Source of the DNA: a virus
Taxonomy: Duplodnaviria > Heunggongvirae > Uroviricota > Caudoviricetes
Virus record (IMG/VR): IMGVR_UViG_3300037468_000575
Span: 64,001 to 88,932 of that record
Reading direction: 5' to 3' (one strand)
Length of the DNA stretch: 24,932 nt
Shown: positions 4,884 to 6,944 of the stretch, piece after piece
Layout of the letters: the number at the start of each line of letters is the position of its first letter
Numbering within the stretch: position 1 is the stretch's first letter
The notes under the pieces: generated by a model
Database searches by the model: none
The model's input: only the letters and a program-made list of their open reading frames with translations
Told to the model about the DNA's origin: nothing
Translations under genes and position numbers: made by a program

Positions 4884-6944
4884 TTATCTCCGTTTGCCTG
4901 TTAATTCACCAGTAAGAACTTTTTCAAGAATACTTGGTTCATAAGGTTCGTCTGTCACAAGACCTGTTCGAATAGCCTCATTAATATTTTCGAATGCAAG
5001 TCCTTGCACAAAACTTGTATTAAAAACAATTTTCTTAATGTTAATCATTATTGGATCCCAAGTTTTTGCTAATCTAGCTGGAATACTTTGGTTGTGTCTA
5101 TCTCGTAAACAATGACTAGTTAGTACTTCTAAATGAACTAAATCCATATCAGGTGCAACCGACGGTCCATAAATATTATATAGTTTTCTGAATAGATGAT
5201 CAACATCTTTATAGATTTCTCTACCACCTAGTAATCTTTCTAAGTATTTAATTTGAGCACTGATATGTGATGCTTCAACCGGAACTTCTAACATAGTATC
5301 ATTTTCTTTATATTCAAAACTGATTTCATCTTTAGTTTTTATCATGTTATTAAAAACTTGAATCTGAACTGATTTATCTAGAATTAAATTGAACGTTATA
5401 TCTTCAAATTCCACTGTCGCTAATAAACTGTTAGACCAAACTAATGTATCTTCAATAAACAAATCAACATTGAGATGATATTCATTTGTATTAATTGTAA
5501 CCTTACAAGGTTTTCTTGTAACTAATTGATTATCCGTTTGATATAACCATCTGTCAGAAAATTCAGACTTTGGATATTCAATTAACGGATCATTGTCAAG
5601 AATTTCTTGTATAATATCAGTTTTTTCTAGTTTAACTGCTCCTCCTGTATGGAAGGTTCTCATAATTAATTGTGTTCCTCTTTCTCCAATAACTTGAGCT
5701 GCAATGATTCCCGCGTACGGACTTCTAGTTTTTTCTAACAATCTACCATAACAAGTATGACAGAGTTTTGGTGATTTACAATAAATTGGACTTCTTAAAT
5801 ACACAACATCATCGAGTTTAAAATCCGATTCTTTAAACTCTTCTAATTTAGAACCTCGTAAAATAAACCTACCTCTTAATCTTGACATCATACCTTTTGT
5901 TAATCGCAAAGACAATGTTCTGTCTGTTTTGCAATCTTTTAATTGATTATCAATTTCAATACTATTAAGAACATAAGCTAATTTTCTAGACATATATCCA
6001 GTATCAGCTGTATTTAAAACTCTATCAATAATTCCTTTTCTCGCGCCTTGGGAAGCTTTAAAATACTCTGTAGGCGTTAATCCATCAGAAAAGGATCCCT
6101 TAATTGGGGATAGCACTTTTCCAGATGGATCAGCAATAATACCTTTTGCAACTAAAATTTGAATTGGTTGATCCCATCCTTTAGTTGCGCCAGAATCAAC
6201 AAGATCATATAATCCTGTTCCTTCTAAATGTTTCTTTGTAATTTCCACCATTTTTTCTAAAAGAATCGATCCCTCTTCTGGAGTAGAGTTTCCTAGTTTT
6301 TCTTTTAATCTATAAACTTCAGGTGGGAGTTGTAAATCATCCAGAGATATACTTGGTGCCATAATTGTAGCAAATTTAAATCCTAATTTTTCTACTTTTG
6401 AAAAAATATTAATGGCTTCATCCTGACCATAAACCTCTATAATTTTTCGAATCAATTTATTTATAATTGATTTATTTACTTGACCAGGATGATATGGAAA
6501 GCTAGTTGGAAAACAAGAATTAAATAAGGCTTTTCCCATAGTTGTTGTTTGACCTCTATATCTAACAGGAATATAGGGATCAGTAGCAGTTTCTAGATCT
6601 TCATCTGTCACAGAAATAGCAGATTTTGTTAATTTAATATCCTTTGTTATTATATATAAACCAGCAGCCATTTCTTTTGTAATTGCAAAAACAACAGAAT
6701 TCATATTATCAAAGCCTTGACTTCGTAACATTTTTTCTTTTGCTTCTTCTTGGGACTCTCTAGTTATGGGATGGAATATGGCCATTGTATCCTGAACAAA
6801 TACACCGTCTGAACTTGCAAAAGTATAGTTATCTTCAACTGTAAGATCGTAACCAACGGTTTCATTTGGATCATATGTTATATCTAATTCAGAAACAGGA
6901 ATTAAAGTTAGACCTTTGTTAAGCAGATCTTGTTTAGTTAGCAT
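4884..6944 (-). CDS. rpoC: RNA polymerase beta' C-terminal fragment preceded by a 52-aa split-intein C-part (IntC)
   Basis: After residue 52 the protein reads TMAIFHPITRESQEEAK (compare E. coli QMAVHVPLTLEAQLEAR). It has the bridge helix GLTPTEYFKASQGARKGIIDRVLNTADTGYMSRKL, the Zn site C..RSPIYC..LCHTCYG and the trigger loop AAQVIGERGTQLIMRTFHTGG. Own RBS (AGAGGA, 6 nt upstream of ATG). Confidence 0.95.
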   Translation of the reverse strand: MLTKQDLLNKGLTLIPVSELDITYDPNETVGYDLTVEDNYTFASSDGVFVQDTMAIFHPITRESQEEAKEKMLRSQGFDNMNSVVFAITKEMAAGLYIITKDIKLTKSAISVTDEDLETATDPYIPVRYRGQTTTMGKALFNSCFPTSFPYHPGQVNKSIINKLIRKIIEVYGQDEAINIFSKVEKLGFKFATIMAPSISLDDLQLPPEVYRLKEKLGNSTPEEGSILLEKMVEITKKHLEGTGLYDLVDSGATKGWDQPIQILVAKGIIADPSGKVLSPIKGSFSDGLTPTEYFKASQGARKGIIDRVLNTADTGYMSRKLAYVLNSIEIDNQLKDCKTDRTLSLRLTKGMMSRLRGRFILRGSKLEEFKESDFKLDDVVYLRSPIYCKSPKLCHTCYGRLLEKTRSPYAGIIAAQVIGERGTQLIMRTFHTGGAVKLEKTDIIQEILDNDPLIEYPKSEFSDRWLYQTDNQLVTRKPCKVTINTNEYHLNVDLFIEDTLVWSNSLLATVEFEDITFNLILDKSVQIQVFNNMIKTKDEISFEYKENDTMLEVPVEASHISAQIKYLERLLGGREIYKDVDHLFRKLYNIYGPSVAPDMDLVHLEVLTSHCLRDRHNQSIPARLAKTWDPIMINIKKIVFNTSFVQGLAFENINEAIRTGLVTDEPYEPSILEKVLTGELTGKRR
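6789..6944 (-). other. Split intein C-terminal part (IntC, 52 aa) ending ...GVFVQD, followed by Thr+1
   Basis: Block F VGYDLTVEDNYTF and block G-like SSDGVFVQD|T. The beta' sequence resumes exactly at the Thr codon 6788-6786. Confidence 0.88.

Follow-up and report, generated by a model that had tools for sequence, protein, structure and literature searches.

A serine-initiated, aspartate-terminated split intein, predicted to splice in trans, at the NADFDGD motif of a phage RNA polymerase beta' gene

Introduction

In the final 25 kb of an 88.9-kb viral record in IMG/VR (IMGVR_UViG_3300037468_000575), the gene for the beta' subunit of a multisubunit RNA polymerase is cut into two fragments, and the facing ends of these fragments resemble the two halves of a split intein. 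We refer to the whole stretch analyzed, of 24,932 nucleotides, as the window. CheckV estimates the completeness of the record at 28%, so the uncultured, jumbo-type phage from which it derives probably has a large genome. The N-terminal half of the element (IntN) starts with Ser-Cys directly after the catalytic motif NADFDGD, and the C-terminal half (IntC) ends in Gln-Asp in place of the canonical His-Asn. A preliminary description, made from the sequence alone, drew attention to these residues and proposed that splicing may be slow or conditional and could act as a post-translational switch on the polymerase. The question raised by this locus is whether an intein with such ends can splice, and whether the ends reflect an error, a decaying gene or an evolved chemistry.

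Among class 1 inteins, an Asp, Gln or Glu end is an accepted variant that follows the established splicing route, approximately 5% of active inteins have no penultimate (G:6) His, and inteins with atypical termini range from slow to better than with Asn (PMC4031507). The precedent of Asp- and Gln-terminal inteins had been invoked in the preliminary description, and PMC4031507 does cite Amitai et al. (2004) for these termini. Based on the evidence given below, we consider it likely that the element is a working trans-splicing split intein of the class 1 type, with oxygen nucleophiles and a terminal Asp that cyclizes in step 3, and that Gln-Asp without an assisting His is a fixed and probably functional state of this allele.

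Junctions and splicing register

Three tightly packed open reading frames (ORFs) follow one another on the minus strand, at 8002..9519, 6945..8015 and 4884..6944. The first encodes the N-terminal part of beta' up to NADFDGD (residues 367–373, positions 8421–8401) and then 132 further residues; the third begins with 52 non-polymerase residues and continues with the remainder of beta' from TMAIFHP. At the N-terminal junction, the motif is followed immediately by AGC (8400–8398, Ser374) and TGC (8397–8395, Cys375). The residue at −1 is Asp373, the third catalytic Asp of NADFDGD, and the AGC codon (8398..8400, minus strand) encodes Ser1, the first nucleophile predicted from the residue-1 pattern in relatives. 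The C-terminal junction (6786..6797, minus strand) reads GTT (6797–6795, Val50), CAG (6794–6792, Gln51), GAT (6791–6789, Asp52) and ACA (6788–6786, Thr53), followed by ATG GCC, and was placed by these codons and by alignment to a hidden Markov model (HMM) of IntC as Val50-Gln51 (G:6)-Asp52 (G:7)/Thr53 (+1). The codons at both junctions agree with those reported in the preliminary description, as does the identity of the −1 residue as a catalytic Asp.

The boundaries of the element can be read from alleles that lack it. An unsplit beta' paralogue in the same record reads NADFDGD-Q-MAVY with no insertion. A query with a single protein returned no related loci, whereas an alignment-based scan of IMG/VR yielded 20 intein-less orthologues in which beta' is a single ORF with the sequence NADFDGD-x-MA[IVL][YF], at 36–64% identity over the N-extein. 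The residue x is T in six of them, Q in ten, and A, V, M or R in the others, and one (L004) is identical to the predicted ligation product across the junction and nine residues beyond. Because the empty-site alleles read NADFDGD-x-MA, excision of Ser374 through Asp52 restores the empty site with zero residues gained or lost. At the level of sequence, the register Ser1...Asp/Thr+1 is fixed by these alleles, and the spliced protein, if the element works as we think likely, would read NADFDGD-TMAIFHP. The earlier argument that only this register gives back the motif without an insertion is thus borne out by the paralogue and by all 20 orthologues.

Conservation of the junctions in relatives

Relatives of the element were gathered in four independent ways, in none of which did the terminal residue play any part: each intein half served as the query of a word-index search, IntN was compared exhaustively by phmmer with 1.84 billion representatives, a block F pattern blind to the terminal residues was scanned for in DNA, and GTDB genomes were scanned. 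The phmmer search found 86 clusters of IntN relatives at E ≤ 1e-3 and 50 at E ≤ 1e-10. For the C-terminal junction, the IntC HMM was run over all proteins and 64 junctions were aligned. The terminal residue (G:7) was Asp in all 64 and never Asn. The penultimate residue (G:6) was Gln in 42, Tyr in 16, Phe in two, Trp in two, Lys in one and Met in one, and His was found in none; the +1 residue was Thr in 54 and Ser in 10. Outside this set, locus L086 has Gln-Asp/Cys, L103 and L110 have Tyr-Asp/Thr within very large ORFs, and L112, with Cys1...His-Asp/Thr, is the sole His-Asp case. Among 63 aligned N-terminal junctions, residue 1 was Ser (46), Cys (8), Thr (8) or Ala (1), and the −1 residue was Asp in every one.

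These counts bear on two points of the preliminary description, which had asked whether Gln-Asp is conserved and had regarded homologues ending in His-Asn or Gln-Asn as evidence against it. The Asp is invariant; the Gln holds in 42 of the 64 and gives way to Tyr, Phe, Trp, Lys or Met in the rest. No sequence of the family shows either His-Asn or Gln-Asn. The Cys at position 2, which had been treated as a possible part of the chemistry, loses that role: residue 2 in 28 N-fragment relatives is C, S, N, G, V, A, I or L, and Cys is absent from most.

The codons around the invariant residue vary. Gln is encoded by CAA or CAG, the +1 residue by ACA, ACT, ACG, TCA or TGT, and Ser1 by codons of both the TCN and the AGY families. 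Since the Asp is invariant in 64 of 64 junctions while the flanking codons change, neither chance nor error accounts for it, and a sequencing error at the Asp codon is ruled out by the same 64 relatives. The +1 position is T, S or C in intein-bearing alleles, whereas intein-less alleles have T, Q, A, V, M or R there. As judged from these alignments, selection keeps a nucleophile at residue 1 and at +1 and an Asp at the end, and the Ser start and Gln-Asp end are a real, family-fixed and evolved chemistry rather than a defect of one copy.

Some further regularities were observed at the junctions. Thr at residue 1, which is very unusual for inteins, occurs in P0051, P0056, P0059, P0062, P0063, P0107, P0047 and P0030, and Ala occurs in P0106 alone. 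A switch between TCN and AGY serine codons would pass through Thr or Cys, both of which are found at residue 1. The penultimate residue follows the architecture of the element: split forms and most mini forms have Gln-Asp, and large endonuclease-bearing cis forms mostly have Tyr-Asp.

Conserved blocks, fold and class

Both fragments carry further conserved residues of the intein blocks. The block B core is Ser-Tyr-Asp-His (8110..8121, minus strand), with Ser467 at B:7 and His470 at B:10. Ser467, Asp469 and His470 are invariant in 26 N-fragments, the Ser and the His are also invariant in the broader IntN set, and by alignment the counterpart of the block in the Aes123 PolB1 intein (9hth) is Thr-Ala-Asp-His. 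In block F, Asp33 of the C-fragment (F:4; 6846..6848, minus strand) is found without exception in 11 C-fragments and in nearly all rows of the 64-junction alignment; this block also aligns with the Mja KlbA intein, a weak match from a single-sequence PDB search. A third residue is His446 of the N-fragment (intein residue 73; 8182..8184, minus strand), which lies in Lys-His-Glu-Asn and is invariant in two IntN alignments. Motif NX, as described by Pasch et al. (PMC10189870), is a His preceded by Lys or Arg that occurs only in Ser1/Ser+1 or Thr+1 inteins and is essential in three of them, and the structure paper on Aes123 states that the motif is present there (PMC11923092). In the IntN profile alignment, His446 is matched to the Lys-His of the Aes123 PolB1 intein. 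Because of this alignment, and not of any geometry, we regard His446 as a candidate motif NX histidine; the His is invariant, yet the residue before it (Lys445 in the window) is not always basic in relatives.

The IntC HMM also matches canonical second inteins in the beta' genes of relatives, and its alignment lays Val-Gln-Asp/Thr onto their Val-His-Asn/Ser, which places Gln at G:6 and Asp at G:7. In the same alignment, the usual F:13 His has no counterpart in the Asp-terminated family.

The fold was examined with a contiguous homologue that aligns end to end with IntN plus IntC, L103:4169-5722 of genome G004. It is a cis intein of 502 aa with a nested LAGLIDADG endonuclease, lies at the same site and has the ends Ser1...Tyr-Asp/Thr. 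Its AlphaFold2 model has pLDDT values of 87–96 across most of the N-terminal splicing lobe, and the endonuclease domain is poorly modeled. The leading Foldseek matches to this model were all inteins, with a probability of 1.00 for more than 10 of them. VIA-align superimposed it on the Mja TFIIB mini-intein with a Z score of 11.9 and a root-mean-square deviation of 2.8 Å over 153 residues; in all, 49 intein or BIL entries scored between Z 11.9 and 7, and besides Mja TFIIB more than 30 intein entries exceeded Z 8. In these alignments, the stretch of the model between the −1 Asp and the terminal Asp (residues 8..510) covers several solved inteins from residue 1 to their end. In addition, a profile of IntN alone, searched against the PDB, matched the Aes123 PolB1 intein 9hth (E 1.3e-3). 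The modeling indicates that the Asp-terminated element has the horseshoe fold of inteins (Hint).

Of the features that characterize class 1, the element has the fold, a nucleophile at residue 1, block B, the block F Asp, a nucleophile at +1 and a conserved insertion site with intein-less alleles. Block G has Gln-Asp instead of His-Asn, and such departures have precedents among active inteins (PMC4031507). The Gln-Asp end marks a variant and does not exclude membership in class 1. Class 3 (Trp-Cys-Thr, with Cys at F:4) does not fit, since the family has Asp at F:4 throughout. Nor does a group I intron explain the split: there was no Rfam match, and Hint blocks are found at the protein level on both fragments.

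Proposed splicing mechanism

The sequences establish how the element is built, its register and its conservation across the family, and a contiguous homologue establishes the fold. From there, we infer by analogy with the established class 1 mechanism (PMC4031507) both that splicing occurs and that its step 3 is a cyclization of Asp. The two beta' fragments would be translated separately, and IntN (132 aa) and IntC (52 aa) would associate into a Hint fold. In step 1, Ser1 would attack the Asp(−1)-Ser1 bond in an N-O acyl shift, helped by the Ser and His of block B and probably by the invariant motif-NX-like His. In step 2, Thr+1 would take over the N-extein by transesterification. In step 3, the terminal Asp, standing in the place of Asn, would cyclize to an anhydride, where Asn gives a succinimide, and so free the intein. 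An O-N shift (step 4) would then give the peptide bond of the ligated beta', which would comprise approximately 1007 aa.

Several points weigh against this interpretation. An Asp at −1 favors off-pathway, premature N-terminal cleavage in many inteins (PMC11842431), a tendency that the preliminary description had stated correctly. The Asp codon is GAT in nine of the nine DNA copies examined, so that no synonymous variation is seen at the one residue that never changes; a uniform GAT is what would be expected in AT-rich genomes. The intein models of Pfam recognize neither half of the element, nor the cis homologue, in which they find only LAGLIDADG_3. The structural model has a pLDDT of <50 for its last 16 residues, including the terminal Asp, and it represents a homologue that is 33–43% identical to the halves in the window, not the window's own split pair. 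Finally, the spliced product and its junction are predictions here. As a −1 Asp provokes N-terminal cleavage, an intein at the NADFDGD site must have adapted to it, and it is plausible, if speculative, that Ser and Thr dominate at this site partly because they form an oxyester instead of a thioester.

A more specific chemistry can be drawn from the invariant terminal Asp, the lack of a His at G:6 and F:13 and the obligatory −1 Asp, which together suggest a distinct step 3. The anhydride might form within a cluster of four carboxylates beside the Mg-binding loop of the polymerase, at a rate set by pH or a divalent metal. We consider this version unlikely. If it were true, the maturation of a phage polymerase would be coupled to conditions in the infected cell, and the family would supply natural, cysteine-independent split inteins with a new reactivity.

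Mobility and alternative explanations

Among the alternatives to a working and simply mobile intein, the one that survives best is the switch proposed in the preliminary description, in which the atypical residues would make splicing slow or dependent on pH, metals or redox state, and splicing would then control the polymerase after translation. We consider it improbable. Some Gln-terminal inteins splice slowly and a slow step 3 is tolerable (PMC4031507), a −1 Asp perturbs many inteins (PMC11842431), and the predicted active site holds the carboxylates of the −1 Asp, the terminal Asp, the block F Asp and the block B Asp, a group that might conceivably coordinate a metal or respond to pH. However, the CIV RNR intein works better with its native Gln than with Asn (PMC4031507), so an atypical residue need not mean slow splicing, and the invariance of the Asp suggests an optimized state rather than a crippled step 3. 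The cysteines near the N-terminus of the intein are not conserved, which leaves no conserved redox trap.

The distribution of the element also speaks against a switch. On a quick maximum-likelihood tree of the N-extein (IQ-TREE; 41 intein-bearing and 20 intein-less sequences), the presence or absence of the intein requires 13 changes, at least five of which well-supported branches make unavoidable. Alleles with and without the intein are found as sisters at short distances (P0019 and L006, P0028 and L007, and L021 with P0021, P0024 and P0025), which indicates that the polymerase needs no such switch. In addition, at least three types of endonuclease occur on the same allele: HNH/DUF7487 in the window, DUF7487 plus a Vsr/DUF559-like domain in P0026 and P0038, and nested LAGLIDADG in the cis forms. 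The interleaving of alleles and the at least three endonuclease kinds argue for a selfish mobile element and not a required regulator; as read from these sequences, the pattern is that of a homing element which has been gained and lost and which the polymerase can do without. The proposal of a slow or conditional switch is accordingly not upheld, since the Asp in 64 of 64 relatives, the intein-less sisters and the variety of endonucleases all fit a mobile element. A facultative regulatory side effect may nonetheless occur. DUF7487 repeats are common to two of the endonuclease types, as if they were a swappable DNA-binding module.

Still less probable is that the halves have lost splicing and either hold the beta' fragments together non-covalently or belong to a decaying gene. 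The beta' genes of jumbo phages are often split without inteins, and ligation is here a prediction. Against this explanation, a loss of splicing would leave approximately 184 residues directly after the third catalytic Asp. Moreover, the nucleophile positions vary only among Ser, Cys, Thr and a single Ala, and all relatives examined retain the Ser and His of block B, the Asp of block F and the Asp at the end, which is not expected of a dimerization module or a pseudogene.

A different register, with a start at Cys2 or with an intein that runs from the Asp before Ser to the Gln and has Asp at +1, can be practically dismissed: Cys-Leu is the commonest intein start, and with Asp at both junctions the product alone leaves the boundary formally ambiguous (the Asp-to-Gln option yields an identical product), but most relatives have no Cys2, the extra Ser left by a Cys start, as the preliminary description foresaw, is carried by no intein-less allele, the acyl shift of a Ser breaks only the bond to the residue directly preceding it so that the Asp stays with the N-extein, an Asp at +1 is not a nucleophile, as had likewise been argued, and the structural alignments superimpose Ser on the first and Asp on the last residue of solved inteins.

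Gene layout and forms of the allele

In the window, the N-extein comprises beta' residues 1–373 (8401..9519, minus strand; Pfam RNA_pol_Rpb1_2, E 2e-23). IntN is delimited by its relatives and its profile match, covers Ser374–Lys505 of the N-fragment (8005..8400, minus strand) and is closed by a TGA stop at 8002–8004. The middle ORF (6945..8015, minus strand) is a free-standing homing endonuclease gene of 356 aa (PF24308, E 1.6e-15; PHROG homing endonuclease, E 5e-13), with DUF7487 repeats and an HNH-like C-terminus. It shares 14 nt (8002–8015) with the IntN ORF, in a different frame, and is in frame with IntC, from which it is separated by a single TAA (junction 6942–6947). IntC spans Met1–Asp52 of the C-fragment (6789..6944, minus strand), and its ATG is preceded by a Shine-Dalgarno-like GAGGA site. 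The C-extein runs from Thr53 to the end, including the stop (4884..6788, minus strand; RNA_pol_Rpb1_5, E 7e-25). The beta subunit gene lies at 795..4880, after the C-fragment. The second, unsplit beta' paralogue of the record (G000:C1:33182-34420, locus L002) has 902 aa and no intein, and two beta' genes, one of them intein-bearing, fit the virion plus non-virion polymerase set-up of jumbo phages.

The same fractured layout, in which each fragment has its own stop or start and an endonuclease lies between, was found for at least 26 N-fragments and at least 10 C-fragments. The 26 N-fragments end approximately 130 residues past NADFDGD, and the 10 C-fragments begin approximately 50 residues before Thr+1. 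In genome G001, the two fragments are approximately 77 kb apart on opposite strands, so the halves must work in trans there; in genome G005, they are adjacent with no endonuclease in between. In P0026 and P0038, IntN is fused in frame to DUF7487 and a Vsr/DUF559-type endonuclease. A search for longer, fused proteins found none, and the fused forms came from the exhaustive phmmer search and the DNA scans. Sixteen ORFs have both junctions in cis around inteins of 175–545 aa, either mini forms (175–221 aa) or large forms (448–545 aa). The family therefore spans forms from cis with an endonuclease to dispersed split genes, and its junction chemistry is the same throughout. Given the endonuclease in the frame of IntC and the fusions in P0026 and P0038, the three-gene layout of the window may derive from a contiguous or half-fused ancestor.

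Other features of the relatives were also noted. A second, canonical intein lies in the C-terminal part of beta', just before TFHTGG, in P0005, P0008, L103 1118..5962(-) and the L024 C-fragment, with the ends Cys/Ser1...His-Asn/Thr or Ser and a LAGLIDADG endonuclease; the corresponding segment of the window is uninterrupted (GTQLIMR-TFHTGG). L024 6484-7614 is listed among the endonuclease loci of the Asp-terminated allele. The beta' gene of G004 is also cut into ORFs of 310 aa and 1614 aa (L103 6559..7491(-) and 1118..5962(-)), near residue 280 of the window's N-fragment, and no intein is evident at this extra break. P0013 is a contiguous form whose gene call begins inside the intein. L110, on a 204-kb contig of a Bacteroidales metagenome-assembled genome (MAG), has a beta'-like ORF of approximately 2700 aa with a cis intein of 525 aa (Ser1...Tyr-Asp/Thr), and this contig is probably a phage contig that was binned into the MAG. 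The rpoC genes at L104–L106, L108, L109 and L111, on MAG contigs labeled Ignavibacteria, Zixiibacteriota, Cloacimonadota or gammaproteobacterium, read NADFDGD-S-MSVH with no intein and have Ser where most bacteria have Gln.

Significance and comparison with known systems

Terminal-Asp inteins are otherwise known only from single, rare cases. Here, one insertion site has at least 86 clusters in which Asp is fixed and the assisting His is absent, and it offers comparative material for step 3 without Asn and His in cis mini, cis plus endonuclease, split adjacent and split dispersed forms. Naturally split cysteine-free inteins are rare and sought-after tools (PMC11923092; PMC12707363), and the present family, judging from its sequences, holds dozens of naturally split inteins that would need no cysteine. 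In addition, the family clearly exemplifies a mobile element that has settled where a viral multisubunit RNA polymerase binds its catalytic metal. As Pfam misses the element, annotators must know to look for it.

We found no paper that describes the Asp-terminated family or pairs the word intein with NADFDGD, in a limited literature set that is weak evidence of novelty. The intein surveys consulted place RNA polymerase inteins only in the archaeal largest subunit and the eukaryotic second subunit. The inteins Mja rPol A' and rPol A'' (named in PMC1635734) resemble the present one in that their host, too, is the largest subunit of a multisubunit RNA polymerase, homologous to beta'; the GTDB genome scan, beyond which a relationship was not sought, found no archaeal RpoA' intein of this type. 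The single features of the element, namely the Asp terminus, the missing penultimate His, Ser1/Thr+1 and the fractured gene, all have precedents.

The layout is that of the fractured genes described by Dassa et al. (2009) (PMC2677866), with an IntN fragment, an endonuclease ORF and an IntC fragment, and P0026 and P0038 carry a Vsr/DUF559-type domain as in the endonuclease family of that study. The endonuclease of the window is different, being of the HNH/DUF7487 type, and PMC2677866 does not mention RNA polymerase or treat inteins that end in Asp or Gln.

Among solved structures, the Aes123 PolB1 intein (9hth; PMC11923092) comes closest by sequence profile, although the relationship is distant (21.7 bits). 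It is likewise phage-encoded and naturally split at the endonuclease site, into 120 + 39 aa compared with 132 + 52 aa here; it has Ser1 and oxyester chemistry and is cysteine-less; its block B DHS and the Lys-His of its motif NX align with the present family; and it is the top Foldseek match of the L103 model (VIA-align Z 10.2). In contrast, its host gene encodes DNA polymerase B and not RNA polymerase beta', and it ends in Asn (the crystal form is N159A), whereas the present family always ends in Asp. The PolB16 OarG intein (PMC10189870) shares Ser1 and oxyester chemistry and a second essential His between blocks A and B, to which an invariant His corresponds here, but it is atypically split (a 15-aa IntN), ends in His-Asn and has a dispensable block B His.

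The nearest precedents for the terminus are the Chy RIR1, CIV RNR and Pab/Mma Pol II inteins (Amitai et al., 2004, as presented in PMC4031507), in which a residue other than Asn at G:7 cyclizes, class 1 splicing continues and a penultimate His is not obligatory. They are scattered single examples, found in ribonucleotide reductase and DNA polymerase II. The present family differs from them in that its Asp is invariant over at least 64 diverged sequences at one site, and in that this Asp occurs alongside Ser/Thr nucleophiles, an Asp at −1 and a lack of His at both G:6 and F:13.

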